Assembly: GCA_035505275.1 (NCBI GenBank)
Contig: DATJQX010000059.1
Coordinates: 22,414-86,413 of the forward strand
Direction of reading: 5' to 3'
DNA from: Streptosporangiaceae bacterium
GTDB taxonomy: Bacteria > Actinomycetota > Actinomycetes > Streptosporangiales > Streptosporangiaceae
Length of the DNA stretch: 64,000 nucleotides
The position numbers and the translations under genes are program-made. Shown piece by piece: positions 10,539-47,588 of this stretch. The notes under the pieces are model-generated. The model did no database searches. It was not told the origin of the DNA and saw only the letters and a program-made list of their open reading frames with translations. Position 1 is the stretch's first letter. Each line of letters opens with the position of its first letter.

Positions 10539-10618
10539 TATACATTCCTGCTGTAGCCCGATGACTCCACGATCTGCTCCCCGCGGCGGATGGGAACCCC
10601 GGGGGGTCTGCTCTGCCG
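10539..10618 (+). promoter_or_regulatory. Conserved promoter/5' leader shared with two other kinase-WD40 paralogues
   Basis: tatacattcctgctgta...gatctgctcc...ggatggg...ggggtctgctc...ATG aligns with 41191-41268 and 45432-45503. Confidence 0.4.
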
Positions 10619-12715
10619 ATGGACGCTCTTCAGCGCGGCGATCCCGTCAGCGTGGGCGGTTACCAGCTGCTGGGCAGGCTGGGTGCCGGGGGAATGGGGC
10701 AGGTGTATCTCGGGGCGTCGCCGGGCGGCCGCAAGGTCGCGGTGAAGCTGATCCATTCGGTGCACGCCCGGGACGCTCAGTTCCGGGAGCGGTTCGCCAG
10801 GGAGATCCGGGCCGCGCAGCGGGTCGGGGGTTTCCACACCGCTCTCGTGGTCGACGCCGACCCGTATGCCGACCCGCCGTGGATGGTAACCGCTTACATC
10901 GAGGGGCCGTCGCTGCAGGAGGCGGTTCGCCGGGCCGGGCCATTGCCGGCCGGCCAGGTGCGGGCGCTGGGCGCCGGGCTGGCCGAGGGGCTGGGCGCGA
11001 TCCACGCCTGCGGGCTGGTGCACCGGGACCTCAAGCCAGGCAACGTGATCCTGGCCGCGGACGGGCCGCGGATCATCGACTTCGGCATCGCCCGGGTGGT
11101 CGACGCGAGCACGGCAATCACCATGACCGGCGCGGTGGTGGGCACGATCGCCTACATGTCACCGGAGCAGATCCGGGCCGAGGTGGCCGGGCCGGCCAGC
11201 GACGTGTTCTCGCTGGGCAGCGTGCTGGGGTTCGCGGCCACGGGTCACCCGCCGTTCGGCGCCGACTCGCCCGTGTCGATCATGTACCGCCTCGTCAACG
11301 AGCCACCGGACCTGGCGGGGGTGGCCGACGACGGGCTTCGGGAGGTGATCGCCGCCTGCCTGGCCAAGTCTCCCGGCGACAGGCCGCCGGTCCGTACCGT
11401 CATGGCCGCGTTCAGCCGCCCGGGCCTGGCGCCGGCCGCGTTCAGCCGCCCGGGCCTGGCGCCGGCCGCGTTCGGCAGCCCGGCGCCGGCGGCCGGGACG
11501 GCGCCGCCCAGGACTTCGCCATCGAGGAAACCGCCGCCCAGGCCCGGGCACGCCCGGCGACCTCGCCGGACGGCCGGGCTCGTCGCGGCCGTCGCGGTCG
11601 CGGCCGTCGCGGTCGCCGTCATCCTCGTCGTCTCGCTGATCCCTCGCAGCACTCCGCCGGCCGCGGCCGGCCATCGCCCGAGCGGAACCGCCAGCGCCGG
11701 GAGCACGGCGACGACGCGGGGCACGAAAGGCCCCCACCCGGCAACCAGCCAGGTCAGCGCGGGCGGAACGACCCCGGTCCATGACCTCACCCTGACGGAC
11801 CCGGACAACACGGGACTGAACGACATCTCCTTCAGCGCGGACGGCAGGCTGCTGACCGACACCGGTCCCGACGGCCGTGCCTACGTCTGGGATCTCGCCA
11901 CCGGCACGCTCGCCCACGCCCTGACCACGCCGAACGAGACCGTCGTCGTCCCGGCGTTCAGCCCGAACGGCACGCTGCTCGCCAGCAGCGCGGGCGCTGT
12001 CTCCCTCGGCGTGGACCTGTGGGACGTCGCCACCGGCCAGCGCCTCACCACCCTGATCAACCCGTCGCAGCCCCTCGGCGTCAACAGGCTGGCGTTCAGC
12101 CCGAACGGCAAGCTCCTGGCCGTCGGTGTCGGCGGGCACGTCTGCCTGTGGAATCTCGCCACCGACACCCTCATCTACACCCTCGCCACCCCCGGCACCC
12201 TCATCAACGCGCTGGCGTTCAGTCCGGACAGCACGATGCTGGCGGCCTCCGCCATCCTCGGCGGCGGCAACTCCGTACGCCTGTGGGACGTCGCCACGGG
12301 CGACCTGATAGCCACGCCGCTGGCCGGCATCCCGGACGTCGAGAAAATCGGCATCGGGGCTCTCGCGTTCAGCCCGGACGGCAAGCTCCTGGCCGCCAGC
12401 GGCGGCGGCCACGGCGGCATCTACCTGTGGAGCGTCGGCACCCAGAGTCTGGTCAACACCATTTCTTCCTCGGGCGAGGGCACCATGCCGATGGCGTTCA
12501 GCCCGGACGGCGGGCTGCTGGCCGCAGCCGACTGGGGGAGTTCGGATCGCGGCTACATCTGGGACGCGGCCAGCGGTGCGCTCCTGCGCACCTTCACCGA
12601 CCCAGGCGGATATGCCATCTCGGACGTGGCGTTCAGCCCGGACGGCAAGCTCCTGGCCTTCGCCGACCAGATCGGCGACGTCTATGTCAAGGTCACGAGC
12701 CAGTTCGTCTCGTGA
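10619..12715 (+). CDS. Receptor-type Ser/Thr protein kinase with a C-terminal seven-blade WD40 propeller (PkwA-like), paralogue 1
   Basis: 698 aa. Hanks motifs are present (GRLGAGGMGQV, VAVK, HRDLKPGN, DFG, MSPE). A Pro-rich linker and one TM helix (VAAVAVAAVAVAVILVVSLI) are followed by 7 AFSP(D/N)G blades. Confidence 0.9.
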   Translation: MDALQRGDPVSVGGYQLLGRLGAGGMGQVYLGASPGGRKVAVKLIHSVHARDAQFRERFAREIRAAQRVGGFHTALVVDADPYADPPWMVTAYIEGPSLQEAVRRAGPLPAGQVRALGAGLAEGLGAIHACGLVHRDLKPGNVILAADGPRIIDFGIARVVDASTAITMTGAVVGTIAYMSPEQIRAEVAGPASDVFSLGSVLGFAATGHPPFGADSPVSIMYRLVNEPPDLAGVADDGLREVIAACLAKSPGDRPPVRTVMAAFSRPGLAPAAFSRPGLAPAAFGSPAPAAGTAPPRTSPSRKPPPRPGHARRPRRTAGLVAAVAVAAVAVAVILVVSLIPRSTPPAAAGHRPSGTASAGSTATTRGTKGPHPATSQVSAGGTTPVHDLTLTDPDNTGLNDISFSADGRLLTDTGPDGRAYVWDLATGTLAHALTTPNETVVVPAFSPNGTLLASSAGAVSLGVDLWDVATGQRLTTLINPSQPLGVNRLAFSPNGKLLAVGVGGHVCLWNLATDTLIYTLATPGTLINALAFSPDSTMLAASAILGGGNSVRLWDVATGDLIATPLAGIPDVEKIGIGALAFSPDGKLLAASGGGHGGIYLWSVGTQSLVNTISSSGEGTMPMAFSPDGGLLAAADWGSSDRGYIWDAASGALLRTFTDPGGYAISDVAFSPDGKLLAFADQIGDVYVKVTSQFVS
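11405..11473 (+). repeat. 30-bp in-frame tandem repeat (AAFSRPGLAP x2 plus a partial copy) in the kinase juxtamembrane linker
   Basis: gccgcgttcagccgcccgggcctggcgccg is repeated exactly, followed by a 9-nt partial third copy. Confidence 0.9.
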
Positions 12716-31546: not shown

Positions 31547-31663
31547 TCAACGGCTCTGCCTCGCTACCGCCGACAGCGCAAGATTCAGCCGAGGCCTTTG
31601 CCCGGCGCGTATCGTAGGGCCGTCTCGCCCGTCCGGGTTCCGCGTCTTTGCTGGAGGCTCGCC

Positions 31664-32305
31664 ATGCGGTTCACCAAGCTCGGGCACTCGTGCGTCAGGC
31701 TGGAGAAGGACGGCGCCGTCCTGGTCATCGACCCCGGCACGTTCAGCGACGCGGCCGCGGCGCTGGCCGGAGCGGCCGCGGTCCTGGTCACCCACGAGCA
31801 CCCGGACCACCTCGACGCCGACGCGATCCGTGCCGCGCTCCACGCCGACCCGGACCTGACGCTGTGGGCCAACCCGTCGGTCACGGCGCAGTTCGGGGAG
31901 TTCGGCGGCCGGGTGCACGAGACCCGCCATGGCGACGCGCCGTCCGTCTCGGGCTTCTCGGTGCACGTGTACGGCGTGGACCACGCGCTGATCCACCGGG
32001 ACATCCCGCTGGTGGTGAACACGGGGTTCCTGGTCGAGGGCGAGGTGTTCCATCCCGGTGACTCCTACACGGTCCCCGAAGAGCCCGTCGGCACGCTGCT
32101 GCTCCCGATCAGCGCCCCCTGGCTGCAGGCGGGGGAGATGATCGACTACTTCCGCGCCGTCGCGCCCTCCCGCGGCTATGCGATCCACGACGCGATCCTG
32201 AACGAGGCCGGCCTGGGCTTGATGACCAGGATGATGTCCGTGGCGGCCGCCCCCAGCGGAGCGCCGGTCGCCCGGCTGGAACCCGGCACCACCCTGGACC
32301 TGTGA
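31664..32305 (+). CDS. MBL-fold metallo-hydrolase
   Basis: ATG 31664 gives MRFTKLGHSCVRLEKDGAVLVIDPG, and the HxHxDH motif is THEHPDHLD. Confidence 0.8.
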   Translation: MRFTKLGHSCVRLEKDGAVLVIDPGTFSDAAAALAGAAAVLVTHEHPDHLDADAIRAALHADPDLTLWANPSVTAQFGEFGGRVHETRHGDAPSVSGFSVHVYGVDHALIHRDIPLVVNTGFLVEGEVFHPGDSYTVPEEPVGTLLLPISAPWLQAGEMIDYFRAVAPSRGYAIHDAILNEAGLGLMTRMMSVAAAPSGAPVARLEPGTTLDL

Positions 32306-33226: not shown

Positions 33227-34252
33227 GTGGGAATCGACCGCTCTGACGACGCCGGCGACCCGCCCGCCGAGCAACCAGACCGTTCGGCCGACCGGGCGGA
33301 CGCCGCCCCTGCGGACCACGGCAAGCAGCCATCCCGGCGCGAGCAGATCGAGCCCCGCAGTCGCGAGGAAGCCTGGACCGACCTCCGCGGCACCGTCGGC
33401 CTGCAGGAGCGAACCGAGCCGGCCGGCCCCTCCGAACCCGGCGCCCGCTCCAAGACAGGAGAACCATCCGAGAACGGCCACCAACCCAAGGCCGAACCGA
33501 GCTGGGAAGAGAAGGCCAACGAGTCCCGCTGGATGTGGGGCGAGTTCAAACGCCGCTTCCCCGCCGAAGAGCGCCCGCCAGTAGACCGCTCGAAGGACCC
33601 CATCGGCTCATGGCGCGCCGAAGGGGACAGATACCTAGACCCCGTCAAAAACCAACGCATTGACGCGGAGTGCGACCGTATCGCAGACCGCGAGAAGGAA
33701 AGGATCTTGCCCGGGTTGCGCGCTGTTGAAAGCCAAGATCCACAGCGGCACCTGGTCGGTTTCGACCACCGCCTCAAAAGCCGCGATCGCATCAAGGAAA
33801 AAGTCTGCGATACCCTCAAGGAGCAGTCTGAGCTCTCCGTAGATGGAGCTGTCTCGCTTGTTCCAGACGCGATTCGGTTTACCTTTCAGTACGAGGATGC
33901 GCGTTACACGCGGGGCGTCTACGCGGACATGGCGCGCATGCGAGAGCAGGGCTTCCAGCTGAAAAGCACAAGGAATACCTGGTCCGATGACCAATACAAG
34001 GGCATTAACAGCCAGTGGATTGAGCCAGTAAGTGGCCAGCGGTTCGAAGTGCAGTTTCATACGCGCATCAGCCGCGAGGCAAAGGAGCTCACCCACCCTG
34101 CCTACGAACGGATCCGCGCCGTACCGAAGCCTGATAAATTCGAGCAGATGGTCTTGGAAGCCTTCCAGAAAAAGGTCACCGCCGAGGTGCCAATACCGCC
34201 CGGTGCCACCGATATTCCCGACTACCCGAAGAGAGGCACAGATGCCAGATAA
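33227..34252 (+). CDS. RelA/SpoT-fold (small alarmone synthetase / toxSAS-like) nucleotidyltransferase with a disordered acidic N-terminal region
   Basis: 341 aa. Motifs occur in RSH-synthetase order: HRLKSRDRIKEK (RxKxxxSIxxK-like), VPDAIRFTF, QYKGINSQW, FEVQFHT (ExQxxT) and THPAYERIR (HxxxY). The start is GTG 33227, with an alternative at ATG 33533. Confidence 0.6.
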   Translation: MGIDRSDDAGDPPAEQPDRSADRADAAPADHGKQPSRREQIEPRSREEAWTDLRGTVGLQERTEPAGPSEPGARSKTGEPSENGHQPKAEPSWEEKANESRWMWGEFKRRFPAEERPPVDRSKDPIGSWRAEGDRYLDPVKNQRIDAECDRIADREKERILPGLRAVESQDPQRHLVGFDHRLKSRDRIKEKVCDTLKEQSELSVDGAVSLVPDAIRFTFQYEDARYTRGVYADMARMREQGFQLKSTRNTWSDDQYKGINSQWIEPVSGQRFEVQFHTRISREAKELTHPAYERIRAVPKPDKFEQMVLEAFQKKVTAEVPIPPGATDIPDYPKRGTDAR

Positions 34253-34508
34253 GGTCACGTATTACGCTATTGTCAACGACTTGAGCAGTCGTGACCGGCC
34301 TGCAGGTGTATTCCGCCGTATCTACACAGAGGACGGCGGCAAACTCGACGAAGCCTTCACCCGGAATCTCATCTGGGAATTCAGCCCATCGCTTATCTCC
34401 GCCGAGCGCGGAGATCTGCAAAACGAGTTCATCGAGATCACCGAGGACGAGGCGAACCAGATCGTAGACCGCATCCGAGCTACAGTCGCTGGCGCGAACG
34501 ACGGCTAA
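34242..34508 (+). CDS. Small acidic protein overlapping the RelA/SpoT-fold gene by 11 nt; candidate cognate antitoxin/immunity protein
   Basis: 88 aa (MPDKVTYYAIVNDLSSRDRPAGVFRRIY...EITEDEANQIVDRIRA). Its ATG lies inside the last codons of the upstream gene, it shares the same atypical low GC, and no family is recognised. Confidence 0.55.
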   Translation: MPDKVTYYAIVNDLSSRDRPAGVFRRIYTEDGGKLDEAFTRNLIWEFSPSLISAERGDLQNEFIEITEDEANQIVDRIRATVAGANDG

Positions 34509-34598: not shown

Positions 34599-34652
34599 CC
34601 AATGGTTGTGACAACGTACCCATTCTTCTGGGTAGGTTGCCACAACCATTGG
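34599..34652. terminator. Long hairpin between convergent genes (17-bp arms, one mismatch, 20-nt loop); candidate bidirectional terminator and island boundary
   Basis: ccaatggttgtgacaac ... gttgccacaaccattgg. Confidence 0.45.
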
Positions 34653-34835: not shown

Positions 34836-36131
34836 CTACGCCTCCGCCGAACCGCCCAGCGTCCGTTCCGCCCCGCGCACCACCGCACCATCCTCCACGC
34901 TGACCACCACGAACCCGCTGAACCCGTCCGCCTCGAGCCGCCTCAACTGAGCCCCGAACTTCCCGCTTCGCCGCACCGTCTCAACCACGCGTCCGGCCCC
35001 GTAAACCCCGCGCAGTTCCCGCGCCACTTCCAGCGCGTCCGCCACCGGCACGTCCGGCTCCACCAGCACCGCCACCGCGTCCCGCGAGGGCCGGCGGGCC
35101 AGCAGGTCCGCGATCCGCTCGAATCCGATCGAGAACCCGCACGCCGGAACGTCTCGCCCCAGCGACCGCCCGATCAGCTTGTCGTACCGCCCGCCTCCGG
35201 CCACCGAACCGCTCATGTCCGGGTGGATGATCTCGAACACCTGCCCGGTGTAATACCCGAGCCCCCGCACAAGCGTCGGGTCGAAACGCCAGCTCAGCGC
35301 CCGTTCGGCCGCCAGCCGGTCCAGGCATGCGGCCGTATCAGCCAGGTCCGACACGACCTCCGCAGGCAGCTTAGGCAGGCGGTCAAGCAAGGCCCCGGCC
35401 AGCCGAGAACCGGGCACGCCCTCCAGACCCTGGATCGTCTCCTGCACCGCAGAGACCACCGCAGCGTCGAACCCGAGCTCGGCCAGTTCGGCCCGCACCC
35501 CGTCCCACCCGATCTTGTCCAGCTTGTCGACCGTGATAAAGAACGACTCCCAGGCCTCAGCAGGAACCCCGCACTCCTCGGCCAGCGCCGAAAGGAACCG
35601 CCGGTCCGACACCCTCACCACAGTGCCCGAAAGCCCCACCGCCGCCAGCGCCGCGCTGGTCGCCTCGATCAGTTCCGCCTCCGCGAGCACGGAAGCCTCG
35701 CCGATCATGTCGATGTCGCACTGGTAGAACTGCCGGTACCGCCCCCGCTGCGGCCGCTCCGCCCGCCACACCGGTCCCACCTGCAACGACCGGAACGGCA
35801 GCGGCAGCGACGCGTGGTTGTGCCCGTAGAACCGGCTCAGCGGCATGGTCAGGTCGTACCGCAGCCCGAGGTCGACCAGGTCCCGCAGCGGAGTATCGGC
35901 GCCGACCGAAGCAGGCAGCCCCCGCCGCAGCACCCAGTAGGCAAGCTTCTCGTTCTCCCCGCCCTGCCCGCTCGTCAGCCGCGCGATGTCCTCCAGCGCC
36001 GGCGTCTCGATCCGCTGGTACCCGAACCGCCGGTACACCGCCGCGACCGACTCCAGCACACGGTCACGGACCGCGACGTCAGCAGGCAGCAGATCCCGCA
36101 TCCCCCTGGCCGGGCTGTTATCGATCTTCAT
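34836..36131 (-). CDS. hisS: Histidine--tRNA ligase, archaeal/eukaryal-like subtype
   Basis: ATG 36131 gives MKIDNSPARGMRDLLP. It carries LRYDLTMPLSRFY, motif 2 WRAERPQRGRYRQFYQCDIDMIG, and motif 3 GGGRYDKLIG. Confidence 0.85.
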   Translation of the reverse strand: MKIDNSPARGMRDLLPADVAVRDRVLESVAAVYRRFGYQRIETPALEDIARLTSGQGGENEKLAYWVLRRGLPASVGADTPLRDLVDLGLRYDLTMPLSRFYGHNHASLPLPFRSLQVGPVWRAERPQRGRYRQFYQCDIDMIGEASVLAEAELIEATSAALAAVGLSGTVVRVSDRRFLSALAEECGVPAEAWESFFITVDKLDKIGWDGVRAELAELGFDAAVVSAVQETIQGLEGVPGSRLAGALLDRLPKLPAEVVSDLADTAACLDRLAAERALSWRFDPTLVRGLGYYTGQVFEIIHPDMSGSVAGGGRYDKLIGRSLGRDVPACGFSIGFERIADLLARRPSRDAVAVLVEPDVPVADALEVARELRGVYGAGRVVETVRRSGKFGAQLRRLEADGFSGFVVVSVEDGAVVRGAERTLGGSAEA

Positions 36132-36292
36132 TGAGGCCTTCCGCACATGAGGTACCGAGCACGACACCGCCAGCGCACGGCGGCACACGCAATGCTAGGT
36201 GAGCGTCTCGGGTGTTCGCCTCTAGATTTTCCCGCAGGACGTGGGAGGTGAGGCCGGCGCGCAGTGGTGCGCCCCGGCCCGCCTGAAAGATT

Positions 36293-36790: not shown

Positions 36791-37040
36791 GACGTCAGGC
36801 TATCGAAAGCGACGGCAGGTTAGCGGGGACTTAACCGGCCATGGGCATCGGCCGCATTGTGCCCGACGGACTCGATGCCGCATCGCGCGCCGTCATAACT
36901 GGCTGGTAGCAATAACCTGCCCATTGGCAGCCTGCAAGCCGAAATGGAGTGTGCCGGTGCTGCCTTTTCAAGTACGAACTTTCCGCTCATTGAGGCCCGC
37001 CCCCCGATGGTCCATAGTCAGAGAATGAGGTCGACCTCCG

Positions 37041-37913
37041 GTGACGGTGAGCCGCGCCATGCGGGTCATTGAGCTGTCCAACCACCCCGGCGACATGCTG
37101 AACGACGTCGCCCGGCGACGCCGGGCCGCGGACACGAAAGCGCACTCGGCGTACGAGGACGCGCTGATCCAGCATCAAGCCAAGGTCCGGGCCGTGCGGG
37201 TCAAGCGCGACCGGGCGCGTAAGCAGCACCAGTGGTGGACCTGGCTGCGGCTGGCGCTCGCCCTCTTGGCCCAGAAACGCCGAGCGCCCAGTCCGCCGGG
37301 CCCGAGCACCGAGCCCACCGATGCCGAGGAGAAGATCAGGGCCGGGATCGCCGGCGAGCAGCTGGTCGCTACCGAGCTCGGCCGCGCGCTGACCGACGAC
37401 TGGACGCTGCTGCGCGGGTACCGCAACCGGCGCGGCGAGATCGATCACCTTCTCCTGGGCCCGAAGGGGCTGTTCGCCATCGAGGTCAAGAACGTCAACG
37501 CCACCGTGCACGTCGACGGCGGCACCTGGCGGGCCGACAAGTACGACAACTACGGCAACCTCGTGGAGCAGTACCAGATCACCGACCGGAAGGGCCGCTC
37601 GCCGAGCGAGCAGCTCAACGAATCCGCCGACGAGCTGGAACGCTTCCTGCGCGACCGCGGCCAGCCCGTAAGAGCCCAGCGCGTCGTGGTCCTCACCCAC
37701 CGCCGGTCCCGGCTCGCCGCCGCCAGCCGCCCCACGGTCAACGTCGGAACCTCGACCGGCTACCTACTCCACCTCGCCGACGACTCACCCGACCATCTCG
37801 ACGAGAAACAGCGCACCGAGCTCCAGCGCCTCATCCGGCGCGACCACGACTTCCACGAGAGAACTCGCCGTAAGCCCGGTCCGCAGAACCAGCGCACGAA
37901 CCGCGGCCACTGA
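37041..37913 (+). CDS. NERD (nuclease-related) domain protein
   Basis: 290 aa. The core GEQLVATELGRAL...GEIDHLLLGPKGLFAIEVKN is typical of NERD, and an N-terminal hydrophobic helix WWTWLRLALALLA is present. An alternative start is ATG 37059. Confidence 0.7.
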   Translation: MTVSRAMRVIELSNHPGDMLNDVARRRRAADTKAHSAYEDALIQHQAKVRAVRVKRDRARKQHQWWTWLRLALALLAQKRRAPSPPGPSTEPTDAEEKIRAGIAGEQLVATELGRALTDDWTLLRGYRNRRGEIDHLLLGPKGLFAIEVKNVNATVHVDGGTWRADKYDNYGNLVEQYQITDRKGRSPSEQLNESADELERFLRDRGQPVRAQRVVVLTHRRSRLAAASRPTVNVGTSTGYLLHLADDSPDHLDEKQRTELQRLIRRDHDFHERTRRKPGPQNQRTNRGH

Positions 37914-37999
37914 ACGGCGTTCGTCAAAAGCGCAACCCCCACCGCCACGCCTACCGGGCAAACGGGCCAGAATCGGTAGACGAGGGAGGCCCGAACACC

Positions 38000-40900
38000 A
38001 TGACCGAACGCCATGCGCCGTCGAGTTCTCCAGGAGGACGGGGCCGGCTCGCCCAGGTCATCGCGACGCGGGGAGGCCTGGCGCCGCCCGAGGCCCCGTT
38101 CGTGATCGAGCACCGCGAGGCGCTGATCTACATGCTGTGCGAGGCCGCCGAGCTCGAGCACGGCATCATGTGCCAGTACCTGTACGCCGCGTTCTCGCTG
38201 AAGCAGTCCGAAGCCGAGGGCCTGACCGCGACCGAACTAGAAGCCGTCCAACGCTGGCGCAAGCAAATATCGCACGTGGCCACCCAGGAGATGCTGCACT
38301 TGTCCCTGGTCCAGAACCTGCTGTCCGCCATCGGCTGCGCGCCGCACCTGTCCCGGTCGAACTTCCCGCACCCGGCCAGCAACTACCCGGCGGGCGTCCA
38401 CCTGGCGCTGGTCCCGTTCGGCGAGACCGCCCTTCAGCACTTCATGTTCCTTGAGCGCCCGGAGGGCATGGACCTGGACGACGCCCAGGGGATGGCCGCG
38501 TTCGGCCGTGCCCGGCCCGCCATGCAGAAAACCGAGATCGTAGCCCGCGGCCAGGACTTCGCCACCGTCGGGCACCTGTACCGGTCGATCGAGGCCGGGA
38601 TCGCCCACCTGGCCGACAAGTTCGGCGAGCGGTGGCTGTTCGTCGGCCCGCCGCGGGCCCAGGCGACGGAGCAGTATTTCGTCTGGCCCGAACTGGTCGC
38701 GGTGACCGATGTCGCCTCCGCGCAGCAGGCCATCGACGAGATCCTCGAGCAGGGCGAGGGCCCGCGCGGGGACTGGAAGGACGCCCACTTCGGCCAGTTC
38801 GTCGAGATCCTGGACGAGTACACCCAGCTCCGCGACGCCAACCCGGCCTTCGACCCGGTCCGCCCGGTGGTCACGGTCAACGTGCGCCCGGCCGTGCGAG
38901 AGACCGACATCCCGCTGGTCACCGACCCGCTGACCCGTCAGGTCATGGACCTGTTCAACGTCGCCTACGAGATCCTGCTGCTGATGCTGCAGCGCTTCTT
39001 CGTCCACACCGAGGAGACCGACGCGCAGCTCAAGGCGCTGGCCGACGCCACCGTCGCGCTCATGTACCAGGCCATCAAGCCGCTCGGCGACCTGGTGACC
39101 ACGCTCCCGGCGGGCCCGGACTACCCGGGCCGCACGGCCGGCCCCAGCTTCGAGCTGTTCTACGAGACCGATTACGTGCTCCCGCACCGCGAAGCGGCCT
39201 GGATCCTGCTCACCCACCGCATCCGCCAGGCCGCCGACTTCTGCGAGCCCGGGATGCCGTGCGCCCCGCAGGTCGCGGGGGACCTGGACGCGGTCAAGTC
39301 CAGCCTGACCGGGATCGCCGAGGCCCTCGAGGCGCACATGCCGGCCCGCGACGTCCGCCCGGCCGCCCCGGCCCCCGCTCCGCCTGACGTCCTGCCCGCC
39401 CTCCTAGCCCGCGCGGACGATATTTACCGAACGACCAGTGCTTTCACCGGTCACCCCAACGAACTCCTGTCCCACCTAGGCGACGCCGTGCGCTCAACGT
39501 ACCAGGCGGTGCTAGCCCACCAGGACGACTCCCGGGTGGTCGCCCGCCTCGTCGACAGCGTCCTGCGCCCGCTGGGCCAAGCGCTGAACGACGTGTCAGC
39601 CGCCCACCACATCGCTCCCGTCGCTCCCATCCCCGCCGAGCCCGCCCCCGCCCCTACCGCCGATGACCCCCTGTGGGACGCCGCGCACCACGTCACCCGG
39701 CTGCGGGCGCAGTTCGCCAACCACAGCCCGGACGGCCTGCTCGAGGCGGCCGCCGCGCTTCAGCACCTGGCCTGTGACCGGGCCTCGCCGGGAGAGCGGG
39801 CCCGCCGGATCGCCGTGCTGGCGGACCTGCAGAAGTCGCTGCGCCCCGCGATCGTCGTCGCGGAGAACGGCCCCTACCTGGTCACCAACGTCCCGGTGCG
39901 TGACCACCTCGGCGAGCGCCTCACCGTCCCGCCACAGGTGGCGTTCTGCCGGTGCGGCGCCTCGTCGATGAAGCCGTTCTGCGACGGCACCCATGCCACG
40001 AACGGGTTCACCGGCGCCAAGGACCCGGACCGCGTGCCCGACCGCCGCGACACCTACCCGGGCCAGCAGGTGACGATCTTCGACAACCGGGGCATCTGCC
40101 AGCACGCGGGACTGTGCACCGACCGGCTGCCCACGGCGTTCCGCACGGACAAGGAGCCGTTCGTCGCCCCCAGCGGCGCCCGGATGGACGAGCTCGTCCG
40201 GGCCGTCCGCGACTGCCCGTCCGGCGCGCTGAGCCTGGCCTTCGACGGCGAGGAGGCCCGCGGCCTGGCCGACTGGCACGGCCGGCGCGAGCGCGCCATC
40301 GAGATCACCCAGGACGGCCCCTACCGGGTGACCGGCGGCGTCCCGCTGGCCGGCGCGGCAAGCGCCGATCTGCCCCGCGCCGACGTACCCCGCGTCGCGG
40401 GCTCGTCCCGCGAGCACTACGCGCTCTGCCGGTGCGGTCACTCGCAGAACAAGCCGTTCTGCAGCGGCGCCCACTGGTACGCCGGCTTCCGCGACCCGGT
40501 GCGCCCGCCCGGCGCGGAGCCGAGCCTGTTCGACTGGGCCGGCGGGCTGCCCGCCCTGACCCGGATGACCCGCCTGCTGTACGAGAAGCACGTCCCCGCC
40601 GACGACCTGCTGGCCCCGCTGTTCGCCGCGATGCCACCCGACCAGCCACAGCGCGAGGCCGCCGTGCTGGCCGAGGCGTTCGGCGGACCCGCCCGGGACA
40701 GTTCCGCGGACCTGCGCCAGGATTTCACCGAACCGCAGCGGGCCCGCTGGGTCGCCCTGGCCACCCGGGCCGCTGACGAGGCAATGCTGCCTGCCGACCC
40801 CGCGTTCCGCGCGGCCCTGTCGTCTTACCTGGAGTGGAGCTCGCACGCCAATGGCACGACCCCGCTCCCGTGGGACTGGAGCCCGGCAGGCCCGCCCGCC

Positions 40901-41182
40901 GAGGAGCCGGCCCAGGCCAGCACCGACACGACCGAGGAGGTCACGTTGCCAGGACCCGACGAGACGGTGAGCTTCGAGGCCAACGTCAAGCCGCTGTTCC
41001 GCGAGAAGGACAGGCAATCCATGGCCCGCGCGTTCGACCTGTGGTCCCGCGACGACGTCCAGGCGCACGCCGCGGCCATCCTCACCCACCTCAGCAACGG
41101 CACCATGCCCTGCGACGGCGCCTGGCCGCCCGAGAAGGTCGAGGTCTTCCGGCGCTGGACCGAATCCGGCTTCCAGCCCTAG
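38000..41182 (+). CDS. Large multidomain redox-type protein: ferritin-like domain + CDGSH + divergent 4Fe-4S + CDGSH + truncated-globin-like + conserved C-terminal domain
   Basis: 1060 aa behind a GGGAGG RBS. N-terminus: ALIYMLCEAAELEHGIMCQYLYAAFSL...QEMLHLSLVQNLL (ferritin-like). Further domains: CRCGASSMKPFCDGTH and CRCGHSQNKPFCSGAH (CDGSH-type), GICQHAGLCTD...VRDCPSGAL (Cys cluster), then FDWAGGLPALTRMTRLLYEKH...AFGGP (globin-like). Confidence 0.85.
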   Translation: MTERHAPSSSPGGRGRLAQVIATRGGLAPPEAPFVIEHREALIYMLCEAAELEHGIMCQYLYAAFSLKQSEAEGLTATELEAVQRWRKQISHVATQEMLHLSLVQNLLSAIGCAPHLSRSNFPHPASNYPAGVHLALVPFGETALQHFMFLERPEGMDLDDAQGMAAFGRARPAMQKTEIVARGQDFATVGHLYRSIEAGIAHLADKFGERWLFVGPPRAQATEQYFVWPELVAVTDVASAQQAIDEILEQGEGPRGDWKDAHFGQFVEILDEYTQLRDANPAFDPVRPVVTVNVRPAVRETDIPLVTDPLTRQVMDLFNVAYEILLLMLQRFFVHTEETDAQLKALADATVALMYQAIKPLGDLVTTLPAGPDYPGRTAGPSFELFYETDYVLPHREAAWILLTHRIRQAADFCEPGMPCAPQVAGDLDAVKSSLTGIAEALEAHMPARDVRPAAPAPAPPDVLPALLARADDIYRTTSAFTGHPNELLSHLGDAVRSTYQAVLAHQDDSRVVARLVDSVLRPLGQALNDVSAAHHIAPVAPIPAEPAPAPTADDPLWDAAHHVTRLRAQFANHSPDGLLEAAAALQHLACDRASPGERARRIAVLADLQKSLRPAIVVAENGPYLVTNVPVRDHLGERLTVPPQVAFCRCGASSMKPFCDGTHATNGFTGAKDPDRVPDRRDTYPGQQVTIFDNRGICQHAGLCTDRLPTAFRTDKEPFVAPSGARMDELVRAVRDCPSGALSLAFDGEEARGLADWHGRRERAIEITQDGPYRVTGGVPLAGAASADLPRADVPRVAGSSREHYALCRCGHSQNKPFCSGAHWYAGFRDPVRPPGAEPSLFDWAGGLPALTRMTRLLYEKHVPADDLLAPLFAAMPPDQPQREAAVLAEAFGGPARDSSADLRQDFTEPQRARWVALATRAADEAMLPADPAFRAALSSYLEWSSHANGTTPLPWDWSPAGPPAEEPAQASTDTTEEVTLPGPDETVSFEANVKPLFREKDRQSMARAFDLWSRDDVQAHAAAILTHLSNGTMPCDGAWPPEKVEVFRRWTESGFQP

Positions 41183-41190
41183 GCCTTTCC

Positions 41191-41268
41191 TATATGTTCC
41201 CGTAGTACGGCAAACGAACTTTTCGCGGTCTGCTCCGGGAGCAGGTAGGGGCGGGGTCTGGTCGGGTA
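41191..41268 (+). promoter_or_regulatory. Conserved promoter/5' leader of kinase-WD40 paralogue 2
   Basis: tatatgttcccgtagta...cggtctgctccgggagcaggtaggggcggggtctggtcgggtaATG is near-identical to 45432-45503. Confidence 0.4.
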
Positions 41269-43290
41269 ATGGAGGGTCTTCGGCACGGTGATCCGGCCAG
41301 CGTGGGCGGCTACCAGCTGCTGGGCAGGCTGGGAGCCGGCGGGATGGGCCAGGTGTTCCTGGGGATCTCGCCGAGCGGCCGCCGGGTCGCGGTCAAGCTG
41401 ATCCATCCCGTCCACGCCGGGACCGAGCACTTCCGGGAGCGGTTCGCCAGGGAGATCGAGGCCGCCCGGCGAGTCGGGGGGTTTCACACGGCCCCCGTAG
41501 TCGACGCGGACCCGCACGCCGAAACGCCGTGGATGGTCACCGCCTACATCGACGGCCCTTCGCTGGAGGAGGCGGTCGCCCGGCACGGGCCGCTGCCGCC
41601 CGGGCAGGTGCGCGCGCTGGGCGCCGGGCTGGCCGAGGGGCTGGCGGCGATCCACGCGCATGGCCTCGTGCACAGGGACCTGAAGCCCGGCAACGTGATC
41701 ATGGCCGAGGACGGCCCGCGGATCATCGACTTCGGGATCGCCCGGGCGATCGGCGCGACCGCGCTGACCACGGCCGGCTCGGTGGTGGGCACGTTCGCGT
41801 ACATGTCTCCCGAGCAGGTCCGCGGCAATCCGGTCCTGCCGGTCAGCGATGTGTTCTCCCTCGGCTCCGTGCTGGCGTTCGCGGCGACCGGCCGGCCCCC
41901 GTTCGGCAGCGACACCGCCGCCACGGTCATGTTCCGCATCGTCAGCCAGCCGCCCGACCTGGGTGGCCTGGCCGACCAGGACCTCCGCACGCTGATCGAG
42001 GCCTGCCTGGCCAAGTCTCCCGCCGATCGCCCGCAGCTACCGGCGGTCCTGGCCGCACTGACCGGCCGCGGCCCCGTGCCCGCCCCCGTCGTTCCCCGCA
42101 CGACCCCCGTCGCCGGCGGCCGCGACGCCCAGACCCGGACGCACCCGGGCACGAACCCGCCCGCGACCAGCACGCCCGGACCCCCGGTCCACGCCCGGCC
42201 CGCCGGCCGCCGGCCTCGCCGCCGGACCGTCACGCTCATCGCCGCCGTGGCCGTCCTCGCCGTGCTGGGGGCCGTGATTCCCATCCTGCTGACCAGCGGC
42301 AGCCCGGGGACGCCGGCCGGCCACGACCCGGGCACGGGATCCAGCCCGGGCGGCGCCGTCGCGGCGCGGGACTTTACCGTGCAACTCCCGGCCAACGCAG
42401 AAGCCAACGACCTGGCGTTCAGCCCGGACGGCAGGTTCCTGGCCATCGGCGCAGAAAATACCGGGGCTACCTACCTGTGGGATGTCGCCACCGACAAGCA
42501 AGCCGCCATCCTCAAGGTGCGCGGCAGCAGCAGCATCACCAGCGTGGCGTTCAGCCCGGATGGCAAGCTCCTGGCCAGTGCCAACGCGAACGGCCAGGTC
42601 TTCCTGTGGGACGTCCCCACCGGGACGCTGGTCGCCACCCTGACCAGCCCGGGTAGCGGCGAGGCGGACGGGGTGGCGTTCAGCCCGGACGGCACGCTCC
42701 TGGCCATCGGCCAGGGCAACCGTCAGGTCTACGTATGGAGCGTGGCTACCCGCCGGGTTGATCGCACCTTCAGCGCCGCGAGCAACATCAACGGGGTCGC
42801 GTTCAGCCCGGACGGCCAGTTTCTCGCCGGCGCCGGCCTGCCCGCGATCATCTGGAACGTTGCCACCGGCCAGCGATACGCCGCCTTCTACGACCCGCAC
42901 GGCCAGAACGCCGGGAACGTCGCGTTCAGCCCGGACGGCAAGGTGCTCGCCGTGGTCGACGGGAACGAAAGGACCTACCTGTGGGACGTGGCGAGCGGCA
43001 ATGTCATCGCCACGCTTGTCGTCGCGACCCACCCGTTCGTCTTGGCCACCTACAACGAATCGGTGGCGTTCAGCCCCGATGGCAAGCTCCTGGCGACCGG
43101 CGACTCCTACTCCCACGTCTACCTGTGGAACGTCGCCACCGGTAAGGTCGTCGGCTCCATAATCGACCCGAGGCAATCTGGCTTCTGGGGGGTGGCGTTC
43201 AGCCCAGACGGTCGTCTGGTCGCCGCCGCCAACGGGGACGGCACCGTCTGGGTCCGGGTGGTCAGCCAGCTTGTGGGACCTGGTGGGTAA
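41269..43290 (+). CDS. Receptor-type Ser/Thr kinase with WD40 propeller, paralogue 2
   Basis: 673 aa with a Hanks kinase core, a Pro-rich linker, a TM helix (VTLIAAVAVLAVLGAVIPILL) and 7 AFSPDG blades. Confidence 0.9.
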   Translation: MEGLRHGDPASVGGYQLLGRLGAGGMGQVFLGISPSGRRVAVKLIHPVHAGTEHFRERFAREIEAARRVGGFHTAPVVDADPHAETPWMVTAYIDGPSLEEAVARHGPLPPGQVRALGAGLAEGLAAIHAHGLVHRDLKPGNVIMAEDGPRIIDFGIARAIGATALTTAGSVVGTFAYMSPEQVRGNPVLPVSDVFSLGSVLAFAATGRPPFGSDTAATVMFRIVSQPPDLGGLADQDLRTLIEACLAKSPADRPQLPAVLAALTGRGPVPAPVVPRTTPVAGGRDAQTRTHPGTNPPATSTPGPPVHARPAGRRPRRRTVTLIAAVAVLAVLGAVIPILLTSGSPGTPAGHDPGTGSSPGGAVAARDFTVQLPANAEANDLAFSPDGRFLAIGAENTGATYLWDVATDKQAAILKVRGSSSITSVAFSPDGKLLASANANGQVFLWDVPTGTLVATLTSPGSGEADGVAFSPDGTLLAIGQGNRQVYVWSVATRRVDRTFSAASNINGVAFSPDGQFLAGAGLPAIIWNVATGQRYAAFYDPHGQNAGNVAFSPDGKVLAVVDGNERTYLWDVASGNVIATLVVATHPFVLATYNESVAFSPDGKLLATGDSYSHVYLWNVATGKVVGSIIDPRQSGFWGVAFSPDGRLVAAANGDGTVWVRVVSQLVGPGG

Positions 43291-45374
43291 TGGAGGGTCT
43301 TCAGCGCGGTGATCCGGCCAGCGTGGGCGGCTACGTGCTGCTAGGCAGGCTGGGGGCCGGCGGGATGGGCCAGGTGTTCCTGGGGGTCTCCCCTAGCGGC
43401 CGCCGGGTCGCGGTCAAGCTGATCCATCCGGTGCACGCCGGGACCGGGCATTTCCGCGAGCGGTTCGCCAGGGAGGTCGCGGCGGCCAGGCGAGTCGGGG
43501 GCTTTCACACGGCCCCGGTGGTCGACGCCGACCCGCACGCCGCAACGCCGTGGATGGTCACCGCTTACATCGAAGGCCCGTCGCTCCAGCAGGCGATCGG
43601 ATGGCACGGGCCCCTGCCGCCCGGCGGAGTACGCGCGCTGGGCGCCGGCCTTTCCGAGGGGCTGGCCGCGATCCACGCGCACGGCCTGGTCCACCGGGAC
43701 CTGAAGCCCGGCAACGTGATCATGGCCGAGGACGGCCCGCGGATCATCGACTTCGGGATCGCCCGCGCGATCGGCGCGACCGCGCTGACCAGTGCCGGCG
43801 CGGTGGTGGGCACGTTCGCGTACATGTCTCCCGAGCAGGTCCGCGGCGATCCGGTCATGCCGCCGAGCGACGTGTTTTCCCTGGGCTCGGTGCTGGCGTT
43901 CGCCGCGACCGGCCGGCCCCCGTTCGGCACCGACACGGCCGCCACCGTCATGTTCCGCATCGTCAGCCAGCCGCCGGACCTGGCTGGCCTGGCCGACCAG
44001 GACCTCCGCGCGCTGATCGAGGCCTGCCTGGCCAAGTCGCCGGAGGACCGGCCGTCGGTCGCGGCCGTCCTGGCCGCGCTCCTCGGCCGCGCCCCGCTAC
44101 CCCCCGTTACTCCGCGCCCCGCGCCAGCCCCCGACGGCCATGATCCCCTGGCCGGGGCACGCGCGCCGCGGGTGCCGCCCGGGACGAAGCCCGGCCCTGA
44201 CCGCCTCGCCGAACCCGGCACCGCCCCGTCAAGACCGGTCCCGCCCAGTACGGATCCGCCTGGCACGGTCCCGTTCCCGACGCTCCCGCCCGGCTCGGCG
44301 GTGCACGCTCACCCCGCCGGCCGCCGGCCCGGCCGTCGGCCCGGCCGCCGGCTCGGCCGCCGGCCCGCTGCGTTCATCGCGGCCGCGGCCGTCATCGCCG
44401 TGCTCGCCGCCGTCCTTCCCGTCCTGCTGACCAGCGGCCGCCCGGGCCAGGCAGGACCGACCGCGGGCCCCAGCCTGGGCAGCACCATCCCGGAGCGCTA
44501 CCTCCGCATAACGCCCCCGGGCAGCGCTCAGCCTTACACCGTCGCGCTGAGCCCTGACGGCGGGCTCCTGGCCGTCGGCGGCGAGTTCTGGGGGTCCACC
44601 TACCTGTACGACGCCGCCACCGGCAAGCTGGCCGCCACCCTTAAGGTACGCGGCAGCGGCCCCATCACCGACGTCGCGTTCAGCCCGGACGGCAAACTCC
44701 TGGCCAGCACCGACGGCAACCGGATCTTCCTATGGGACGTCCCCGCCGGGAAGCTCGCCGCCACCCTGACCAACGCGGGCGGCAGCGGGCTGGCGTTCAG
44801 CCCGGACGGTCAGTTCCTGGCCACCGGTGATGGCAGGAACGTCGACGTGCGGTACGTGGCCAGCCGCCGGATTACCTTCACCTCCAAAGTCGTCGCGAGC
44901 GGCATCAGCGCGGTGGCGTTCAGCCCGGACGGCAAGCTCCTGGCCGCCGCCGGAGCTCCGGCCTTCCTATGGGATGTCGCCACCGGCCAGCGCGTTGCCG
45001 CCCTCTACGATCCAGGCGGGTATGGCGACGATGACGTCGCGTTCAGCCCGGACGGCAAGCTCCTGGCCGTTGCCGACCACAAGGGCATCACCTACCTATG
45101 GAACGTCGCCACGCACGGCCTCATCGCCACCCTTCCTGACTCCGGGCCGAACTCACAAGAGAACCTGGTGGCGTTCAGCCCTGACGGCAAGCTGCTGGCC
45201 ACGGCCAACGGCGACCTGTGGAACGTCGCGACCAGAAAGCTCGCCGGCAGCATCGCCGGCCCAGGCGGGTGGCACTTCGCGAGCGTGTCGTTCAGCGCCG
45301 ACGGCAGGCTCGTCGCCGCCGCCGACTGGAACGGTCCCGTCTTTGTCCGCGTCGTCAGCCAGCTCGTCTCCTGA
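43290..45374 (+). CDS. Receptor-type Ser/Thr kinase with WD40 propeller, paralogue 3
   Basis: 694 aa. Its ATG overlaps the paralogue 2 stop (TAATG). The kinase domain is about 90% identical to paralogue 2 by eye. It has a TM helix and 7 blades. Confidence 0.9.
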   Translation: MEGLQRGDPASVGGYVLLGRLGAGGMGQVFLGVSPSGRRVAVKLIHPVHAGTGHFRERFAREVAAARRVGGFHTAPVVDADPHAATPWMVTAYIEGPSLQQAIGWHGPLPPGGVRALGAGLSEGLAAIHAHGLVHRDLKPGNVIMAEDGPRIIDFGIARAIGATALTSAGAVVGTFAYMSPEQVRGDPVMPPSDVFSLGSVLAFAATGRPPFGTDTAATVMFRIVSQPPDLAGLADQDLRALIEACLAKSPEDRPSVAAVLAALLGRAPLPPVTPRPAPAPDGHDPLAGARAPRVPPGTKPGPDRLAEPGTAPSRPVPPSTDPPGTVPFPTLPPGSAVHAHPAGRRPGRRPGRRLGRRPAAFIAAAAVIAVLAAVLPVLLTSGRPGQAGPTAGPSLGSTIPERYLRITPPGSAQPYTVALSPDGGLLAVGGEFWGSTYLYDAATGKLAATLKVRGSGPITDVAFSPDGKLLASTDGNRIFLWDVPAGKLAATLTNAGGSGLAFSPDGQFLATGDGRNVDVRYVASRRITFTSKVVASGISAVAFSPDGKLLAAAGAPAFLWDVATGQRVAALYDPGGYGDDDVAFSPDGKLLAVADHKGITYLWNVATHGLIATLPDSGPNSQENLVAFSPDGKLLATANGDLWNVATRKLAGSIAGPGGWHFASVSFSADGRLVAAADWNGPVFVRVVSQLVS

Positions 45375-45431
45375 CGGCCGAGCCACCACCCTATTTCCGG
45401 CTGAAGCCGGGGTCCGGGTCGCCGTTGGCGG

Positions 45432-45503
45432 TATGTTCCTGTGTTAATGCAGCCGTTTCTTACGGTCTGCTCCGGGAGCGGATGGGGCGGGTCTGGTCGG
45501 GTC
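45432..45503 (+). promoter_or_regulatory. Conserved promoter/5' leader of kinase-WD40 paralogue 4
   Basis: tatgttcctgtgtta...cggtctgctccgggagcggatggggcgggtctggtcgggtcATG. Confidence 0.4.

Positions 45504-47588
<2,085 letters not shown>

Follow-up and report, generated by a model that had tools for sequence, protein, structure and literature searches.

Does a pair of overlapping genes in an uncultured Streptosporangiaceae bacterium from soil encode a toxic small alarmone synthetase (SAS) together with the protein that neutralises it and, if so, does the toxin act inside the cell that makes it or is it delivered to a competitor? The pair lies in a stretch of 64,000 nucleotides (assembly GCA_035505275.1, contig DATJQX010000059.1, positions 22,414 to 86,413 of the forward strand), which is called the window here and whose first letter is position 1. 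The toxin gene (33227–34252, + strand; GTG start and TAA stop at 34250–34252 in the list of open reading frames, ORFs) encodes a SAS of 341 residues belonging to the SaEAS/Apk1 clade. The partner gene (34242–34508, + strand; ATG at 34242, within the listed ORF 34032–34508) encodes an acidic α/β protein of 88 residues, a putative immunity protein or antitoxin. An earlier note, made from the sequence alone, had proposed that these genes form a two-gene module like those of the toxic SASs (toxSASs). The reading preferred here, at a probability of roughly 0.6, is that of a self-contained toxin/neutraliser cassette of the toxSAS kind with translational coupling of its two genes, leaning towards an intracellular mode of action like that of toxin–antitoxin (TA) systems. 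The core of this reading, a toxic enzyme with a synthetase (SYNTH) domain and its cognate neutraliser, is highly probable; its weakest step is the intracellular mode, for which the odds are close to even and the lean is slight.

The SYNTH (pyrophosphokinase) domain occupies residues 127–335 of the toxin (33605–34231, + strand), as delimited by phmmer, AlphaFold2 (AF2), Foldseek, NCBIfam and PHROG. In a phmmer search against the sequences in the Protein Data Bank (PDB), the sole strong match was 8VX3 (E=2.5e-34, residues 127–330), which is the structure of SaEAS, an exported alarmone synthetase of Streptomyces albidoflavus and the classical Streptomyces “ATP nucleotide 3′-pyrophosphokinase” [Ahmad et al., mBio 2025, PMC12691689]. 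The two proteins are 40% identical over 196 aligned positions. Residues D121, R124, N169, E182 and Q184 of SaEAS align with D214, R217, N261, E274 and Q276 of the toxin, and none of the five varies in two alignments of the family, one of 44 diverse and one of 109 closer members. For SaEAS K154 the alignment has a gap; its equivalent may be K246 or R249 (the family consensus at 249 is Lys, “LKN”). In the AF2 model, which was built on the 109 homologues, the predicted local distance difference test score (pLDDT) exceeds 90 over residues 90–335. Comparison of this model with the PDB by Foldseek gave 8VX3 as the best match (E=5e-15, template modelling score, TM, 0.87), followed by RelP, Tas1 (6OX6_A), RelQ/SAS1, RelSeq and SpoT, all at probability 1.00, while the match to FaRel2 was weak (E about 0.02–0.03). 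A profile search of the PDB with the family alignment found 8VX3 alone; Tas1 and RelQ were reached by structure only, and the identity to RelP and RelQ in the Foldseek alignments is 13–17%. Because of the alignment with 8VX3, the invariant residues and the AF2 and Foldseek matches, it can be regarded as established, at the level of sequence and model, that the protein has the fold of RelA/SpoT synthetases with its active site intact.

Much of what had been noticed in the letters of the toxin gene is thereby borne out. The five segments that had been likened to alarmone synthetase motifs are present (HRLKSRDRIKEK at residues 181–192, PDAIRFTF at 213–220, YKGINS at 257–262, FEVQFHT at 273–279 and THPAYER at 289–295), and they go beyond chance resemblance, as they coincide with invariant columns in the 109 homologues and with active-site residues of SaEAS. 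A predicted structure that resembles RelQ and Tas1 is likewise what had been anticipated. The closest characterised relatives are, however, not RelQ, CapRel or FaRel but those of the clade formed by SaEAS, Apk1 (Tas1) and the C-terminus of XopAD, which was described in 2025. Asn in place of His, which had been taken as a deviation, is what members of this clade normally have (N169 in SaEAS, N370 in Apk1; PMC12691689).

A search of Pfam up to E=10 gave no family for the toxin, RelA_SpoT (PF04607) included. The earlier note had staked its call on such a profile match, and on this point the result formally goes against it. However, the missing match reflects the sensitivity of the profile rather than a defining property of the protein, and is overridden by the matches to 8VX3 and XopAD. 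The latter match is to the C-terminus of XopAD/skwp in NCBIfam (NF041399, E=3.3e-24, profile positions 1950–2132 of 2133); it covers only these 183 C-terminal positions and scores 84 bits, compared with a family cut-off of 2000 bits. In PHROG the toxin matched the MuF-SAS (“head morphogenesis”) family (E=6e-11), and phage minor head proteins were found by tblastn to carry the SYNTH domain C-terminally. Judged by sequence, the XopAD, PHROG and minor head matches all fall in the Apk1/Apk2/XopAD clade, which is discussed in PMC12691689. A phage origin of the toxin subfamily is not supported, because phage and IMG/VR searches gave only distant MuF-fused SAS proteins (27–37% identity), without partner homologues. 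PADLOC matched neither toxin nor partner, and on the models searched the cassette is absent from catalogued defence systems. The toxin family is large, its homologues forming more than 2290 clusters. By analogy with its relatives, the enzyme is predicted to make (p)ppApp and/or (p)ppGpp.

The second question is whether the small ORF is a gene and whether it belongs to the toxin. Its start codon lies 11 nt within the 3′ end of the toxin gene, and its product has an isoelectric point (pI) of 4.4, with 17 Asp and Glu against 10 Lys and Arg residues. Both genes were predicted by an independent gene caller on an identical 16-kb metagenome contig in ENA, so that the 341-residue ORF overlapped by an acidic 88-residue ORF is confirmed. 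A Shine–Dalgarno-like sequence, GAGAGG (34231–34236, + strand), is found 5 nt before the ATG of the partner, inside the 3′ end of the toxin gene, which suggests translational coupling of the partner.

A scan of 185,579 species genomes yielded 79 related loci, all from uncultured metagenome-assembled genomes (MAGs), most of which are labelled Streptosporangiaceae, Trebonia, Actinomycetes or Actinomycetota, with a few labels naming other phyla. For 78 of the 79, tblastn placed a partner homologue directly 3′ of the toxin gene; the remaining locus holds only a fragment of the toxin. Of 73 toxin–partner pairs taken from these loci and from the window, 25 have a junction of −11 nt, 23 one of 0 or −1 nt and three one of −8 nt; frameshifted assemblies account for the few large negative values. 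The pairwise identities of the SYNTH domains closely follow those of the partners (r=0.87, 1128 comparisons). On this comparative evidence the partner is a real gene, strictly co-conserved and co-diverging with the toxin, which is the signature used to define toxSAS modules and supports the two-gene module that had been proposed. Coupling and co-divergence of the cassette, like the fold and active site of its enzyme, may be taken as established.

The cassette is compositionally atypical. The GC content is 0.58 in the SYNTH region and 0.57 in the partner gene, compared with 0.66–0.74 in the window, and the GC content at third codon positions of both (33605–34508) is 0.69, compared with 0.82–0.96 in neighbouring genes. 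In 53 of 54 related loci, toxin and partner have a GC content more than 3 points below that of the locus. Many MAGs have two or three copies of the cassette, and cassettes of different clades can stand side by side, either convergent (L044, L049, L052, L060, L065, L077 and L080) or in tandem (L055, L063 and L067). Cassettes of the distant clade are often found near a SNF2/DUF3670 helicase gene.

The partner protein belongs to a family of more than 2450 homologue clusters, nearly all of 86–91 residues, none of which is named or has a Pfam domain. The partner itself has no match in Pfam, NCBIfam, PADLOC or PHROG, and a sub-threshold Pfam match to PIN-TPR-GreABC (E=0.07) was rejected as noise. 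Its AF2 model (pLDDT 80.6) is a compact α/β fold with the order β-β-β-β-α-β-α, for which neither Foldseek (best E=0.36) nor a search with hidden Markov models (HMMs) found anything in the PDB. As the PDB includes the immunity protein of Tas1 (6OX6) and the FaRel2/ATfaRel2 complexes, the partner is unrelated to these known neutralisers. Thus, the earlier description of the partner as unrecognised still applies. The structural neighbours of the partner are confined to predicted viral proteins: Foldseek against BFVD gave one marginal match, to A0A516KX65, an unnamed viral protein of 92 residues (E=3.8e-4, TM 0.73), and the model also resembles part of the “capsid maturation protease” of Gordonia phage Phendrix (query-normalised TM, TMq, 0.68). 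Sequence searches, with tblastn against the phage collection and with an HMM against viral SAS loci, gave no phage homologue of the partner.

About 125 residues precede the SYNTH domain of the toxin; the signal peptide of SaEAS ends at the equivalent of residue 127. This extension opens with the motif MGIDRSDDAGDPP (residues 1–13, 33227–33265, + strand; family consensus VGIDRPDDADVPP), in which D4, D7, D8 and P12 are nearly invariant among 109 sequences. Both the start position and the motif have been kept in toxin homologues: a variant, VGS[LV]DLPDQPD, occurs in distant-clade paralogues at only ~35–40% identity, and the motif is also present in four homologues from the supplementary lists of Ahmad et al. 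2025. The motif stands at the head of an acidic, Pro-rich region of variable length (residues 1–92, 33227–33502, + strand; pI 4.76), delimited by pLDDT, pI and comparison of homologues, some of which have repeats there. Disorder is predicted by a pLDDT below 50 over residues 1–85, so that the disordered acidic N-terminus previously put at ~100 residues is seen again, at ~85–90 residues. Among the same 109 sequences there is a second conserved island, ETRxRQEYYxDLRA, with E42 and R44 invariant. The extension ends in a Trp-rich helix and linker (residues 93–126, 33503–33604, + strand; SWEE..RWMWGEFKRRFP..DRSKDP). The helix, residues 93–110, has a pLDDT above 90 and invariant W93 and W104, and is confidently modelled as a structured element that extends the SYNTH domain on its N-terminal side.

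Nothing in this extension resembles a known export signal. No Sec or Tat h-region was found in residues 1–126, where the maximum Kyte–Doolittle value over 10 residues is 0.07, compared with 2.68 in a SaEAS-like signal peptide; in the lack of any hydrophobic stretch, Sec and Tat signals are therefore excluded. Pfam and NCBIfam revealed no LXG/WXG, PAAR/Rhs, MuF, DUF4157 or SKWP domain in the toxin. When residues 1–126 were searched against 1.84 billion representative proteins there were 13 matches, and all seven that were retrieved belong to the same SYNTH family, as members or as fragments. As these matches belong to one family, the idea that the N-terminus is a trafficking domain common to different toxins was rejected on present data. 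A regular-expression scan for the N-terminal motif on the other ORFs of 1.4 Mb of loci gave further toxin paralogues only.

How might such a cassette work? SaEAS without its signal peptide is highly toxic in the cytoplasm, where it makes pppApp and pppGpp (PMC12691689). A signal-less enzyme of this kind would be lethal when free in the cytoplasm and would thus need a neutraliser, for which the coupled, co-diverging 88-residue protein is the obvious candidate. If the toxin behaves as SaEAS does, its SYNTH domain would transfer pyrophosphate from ATP to the 3′-OH of adenine and/or guanine nucleotides, giving (p)ppApp and/or (p)ppGpp, and the very high turnover typical of the clade would drain the pools of ATP and GTP until growth stops. 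The 88-residue protein, presumably translated, in coupled fashion, from the mRNA of the toxin, would bind the toxin 1:1 and block it, thereby protecting the producer. Release of the toxin could follow a trigger, e.g. phage attack or loss of the partner. Toxicity, nucleotide product and neutralisation by direct binding are expected here by analogy with characterised relatives.

The target could also be a different one. Several toxSAS subfamilies are known to act on tRNA (PMC12691689), and an enzyme which shares the SYNTH fold and has a structural match, though a weak one, to FaRel2 might pyrophosphorylate the 3′-CCA end of tRNA as do CapRel, FaRel2, PhRel and PhRel2, thereby blocking translation while making no free alarmones. 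This is improbable, considering the 40% identity to an enzyme whose products are pppApp and pppGpp, the far stronger structural match to SaEAS, RelP, Tas1 and RelQ than to FaRel2, and the lack of a PADLOC match to CapRel-type models. Even harder to credit is that the enzyme is a non-toxic SAS of the housekeeping type, whose small neighbour regulates or chaperones it instead of neutralising it. RelP and RelQ are indeed non-toxic enzymes with the same fold (PMC7229694), and the partner is unusually well conserved for a neutraliser. However, a housekeeping enzyme fits poorly with multiple diverging copies per genome, a GC content atypical for the genome, a cassette that varies beside conserved flanking genes and two strictly coupled genes, and its identity to RelP and RelQ is as low as given above; moreover, the closest relative kills when it is in the cytoplasm.

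The more serious question is where the toxin acts. Several observations weigh against the reading preferred here. All characterised close relatives (SaEAS, VpEAS, Apk1, Apk2 and XopAD) are exported or injected. Known TA toxins do not have an N-terminal extension of 125 residues with conserved motifs. In PDB structure and sequence, the partner is unlike any known toxSAS antitoxin or immunity protein, and it has neither the DNA-binding nor the disordered features of classical type II antitoxins. Among the top matches it is 80–91% identical, compared with 55–78% for the toxin, which is unusual for an antitoxin or immunity protein. Finally, partner homologues without a toxin stand beside Imm49 immunity genes in Streptomyces.

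These orphans were found by tblastn and with an HMM built from 48 partners. Partner homologues without a SYNTH gene are present on plasmid pSCL3 of Streptomyces clavuligerus (locus L082, 4477–5258) and on a plasmid of Mycolicibacterium alvei (L083, 4986–5267), with E=1e-17 and 5e-19, and there are 23 homologues of the pSCL3 type among Streptomyces, Pseudonocardia and Saccharopolyspora, including S. lydicus (L110, 4559–5336) and Pseudonocardia (L111, 4588–5345). In all three Streptomyces and Pseudonocardia loci examined, the orphan is preceded and overlapped by a gene for a protein “X” of 137–165 residues, which has no match in Pfam, NCBIfam or the PDB and no similarity to the toxin. The pair of X and orphan partner in S. 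lydicus adjoins two Imm49 immunity genes and a pentapeptide-repeat gene, and an Imm49 fragment is found near the orphan of pSCL3. In the Pseudonocardia locus, a gene for a protein of 9675 residues starts about 2 kb downstream. By modest guilt-by-association, the partner fold may be in use as an immunity protein.

The exported relatives, the Imm49-linked orphans and the long conserved N-terminus thus favour a rival explanation, in which the toxin is a delivered effector that leaves the cell by a route unrecognisable from sequence, with the N-terminal motif and disordered region as its signal, and intoxicates competing actinomycetes, while the 88-residue protein protects producer and kin. Delivery is widespread in the clade: SaEAS and VpEAS use Sec, Apk1 the type VI secretion system (T6SS), AaEAS the type VII system (T7SS), XopAD the type III system (T3SS) and Apk2 the phage capsid. 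The gene order is that of effector then immunity gene, the N-terminal motifs have been kept across paralogues that are only ~35% identical, the cassette varies at a conserved chromosomal site, and orphans on the plasmids of S. clavuligerus and M. alvei, together with that of S. lydicus, resemble an orphan-immunity island in the last case. If the toxin were delivered, its conserved disordered N-terminus would be a regulatory or recognition handle. On the other hand, the toxin has neither a Sec or Tat signal nor any of the delivery domains sought in Pfam and NCBIfam; genes of the type IV secretion system (T4SS), T6SS or T7SS are found around the toxin in none of the 79 loci within ±6–10 kb; and the N-terminal region occurs on a single toxin domain only, whereas the trafficking domains of polymorphic toxins are normally common to many. 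Delivery is therefore the less favoured explanation, an unlikely one but well ahead of the two described above. Doubtful, and a little more so, is the specific proposal that the N-terminal signature (VGIDRPDDAD..PP, the ETRxRQEYY..LRA island and the acidic disordered spacer) is a new kind of delivery or recognition signal. Were it true, filamentous actinomycetes would release interbacterial alarmone synthetase effectors along a path that has nothing to do with Sec, Tat, T7SS-LXG or contractile-injection signals, the 88-residue protein would be a new immunity family, and the orphans would protect Streptomyces, Pseudonocardia and Mycolicibacterium. The intracellular, TA-like mode retains its slight lead through the lack of an export signal and of secretion context, the N-terminus being specific to the family, and the scattered, multi-copy, low-GC cassettes.

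The cassette can be placed among known systems from both its sequence and its architecture. From SaEAS, with which it shares a SYNTH domain that is 40% identical over ~200 residues, the same D/R/N/E/Q active site and a TM of 0.87, the toxin differs in having a signal-less, acidic, disordered extension of ~125 residues where SaEAS has a Sec signal peptide, and SaEAS-type genes are without an adjacent immunity gene, whereas this toxin has a coupled 88-residue partner. Regarded as an exported alarmone synthetase in general, the toxin has the SYNTH homology to SaEAS and Apk1 but lacks the export signal or recognition domain and the linkage to secretion genes seen in Streptomyces clusters A and B of PMC12691689. 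Apk1 (Tas1–Tis1, T6SS, 6OX6) and Apk2 (phage, MuF-fused) are likewise toxic SYNTH enzymes with the Asn of YxxxN and an adjoining neutraliser gene, and the likeness extends to the fold in Tas1 (Foldseek 6ox6_A, E=7.5e-5) and, in Apk2, to the MuF-SAS match in PHROG. However, the present toxin lacks their PAAR/Rhs or MuF delivery domain, and its partner matches no PDB structure, 6OX6 included, and has no homologue in phage or viral SAS loci. The XopAD/skwp effectors, proteins of proteobacterial plant pathogens, end in a homologous SYNTH domain of ~180 residues, and there are plasmid matches too, but their SKWP-repeat body of ~1900 residues is missing from the toxin, which is thus no XopAD effector.

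The toxSAS modules FaRel, FaRel2, PhRel, PhRel2 and CapRel are conserved and often overlapping bicistrons, in which the antitoxins are unrelated between subfamilies and specific to the cognate toxin [Jimmy et al., PNAS 2020, PMC7229694]. An overlapping bicistron of a SAS and a small neighbour, with a partner that co-diverges as would be expected of a specific antitoxin, is what is found here. In contrast to those modules, the toxin has a long disordered N-terminus, its nearest relatives are exported enzymes, and the cassette falls in none of the five validated subfamilies, judging from PADLOC and from the weak structural match to FaRel2. Thus, by homology the toxin belongs to the SaEAS/Apk1 branch of SASs, and by architecture it fits the definition of a toxSAS, as far as sequence comparison goes. 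The suggestion that it represents an undescribed, divergent subfamily holds in that it lies outside the validated subfamilies, but not entirely: four homologues (A0A6P2BZH5, C2Z0, C8T5 and C1F0), all from Trebonia kvetii, which has at least these four, are present, uncommented, in File S4 of Ahmad et al. 2025, with their SYNTH segments in File S3b (PMC12691689), so that the literature already contains the toxin domain. The partner family, the N-terminal signature and the size of the family were found described nowhere in the literature and libraries searched.

In the window, the cassette is preceded by genes annotated as encoding a sugar-binding protein, LacI, an extracytoplasmic function (ECF) sigma factor, a major facilitator superfamily (MFS) transporter, HxlR, a β-propeller-like repeat protein without a Pfam match, a metallo-β-lactamase (MBL)-fold hydrolase (31598–32305) and an α/β hydrolase. 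It is followed by a convergent gene resembling histidyl-tRNA synthetase (HisRS; tRNA-synt_His, ~431–450 residues; 34836–36188, − strand), which is syntenic in about 10 related loci, and by genes for a small membrane protein and a NERD protein (37029–37913). Between the cassette and the HisRS-like gene, 90 nt 3′ of the stop codon of the partner, there is an inverted repeat (34599–34652) with arms of 24 nt that are 92% complementary and a loop of 6 nt. It has no further copy in the window or related loci and no T-tract, and a terminator scan made no call there; from its sequence and position it probably forms a hairpin that terminates transcription from both sides. Little could be learnt from the scan for promoters and terminators around the cassette, and Rfam and tRNA scans of the window gave no match.

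When all ORFs within ±6 kb of the toxin were clustered for the 79 loci, the recurrent neighbours were an MBL hydrolase (21 loci), PRiA4_ORF3 (14), a SNF2/DUF3670 helicase (eight) and a UvrD helicase (six). The MBL-fold hydrolase gene is found within about 4 kb of the toxin and on the same strand in its 21 of 79 loci (L003–L069), on either side, and is 70–89% identical across loci, compared with an identity of 36–66% to the query for the adjoining toxin. A third component of the cassette, acting as an alarmone hydrolase, was considered and rejected as the simplest reading, the gene being conserved beside a variable toxin and found on either side of it. Rather, it looks like the conserved flank, or hot spot, of variable and exchangeable toxin cassettes, although a functional link, e.g. 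nucleotide hydrolysis, may exist.

Further from the cassette, the window has four paralogous proteins of ~700 residues, all on the + strand (10565–12715, 41206–43290, 43146–45374 and 45405–47588), three of them in tandem. They end alike (…VYV[KR]VTSQ[FL][VL]S), and the two that were scanned are fusions of a Ser/Thr protein kinase with a WD40 β-propeller; the other two would be the same, from their length and common C-terminus. Just upstream of this array, and downstream of the NERD gene, lies a gene for a protein of 1102 residues (37874–41182, + strand) with a Ferritin-like domain, a divergent 4Fe-4S mono-cluster (Fer4_19) and CDGSH iron-binding zinc fingers.

Only recently have toxic alarmone synthetases been recognised as a class of weapon; they occur among T6SS effectors, phage proteins and TA modules and, from 2025, are also known as exported enzymes. 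Should the present cassette be ordinary TA biology, it would still be a useful addition to the diversity of toxSASs, if no surprise. Its conserved disordered N-terminal signature could reveal how such toxins are controlled or delivered. Wild-type SaEAS could not be purified, no immunity protein being available [Ahmad et al., PMC12691689]; the cassette offers a putative cognate neutraliser for a SaEAS-like enzyme and, in the partner, what may be a new family of small proteins, with a new fold, that inhibit SYNTH enzymes. The cassette defines a large family, with more than 2000 toxin clusters at 90% identity across public genomes and metagenomes, whose genome-resolved relatives are MAGs of uncultured Streptosporangiaceae and Trebonia types from soil and peat. 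This multi-copy, fast-diversifying family can be seen as the signal-less, partner-protected counterpart of the exported enzyme of Streptomyces.

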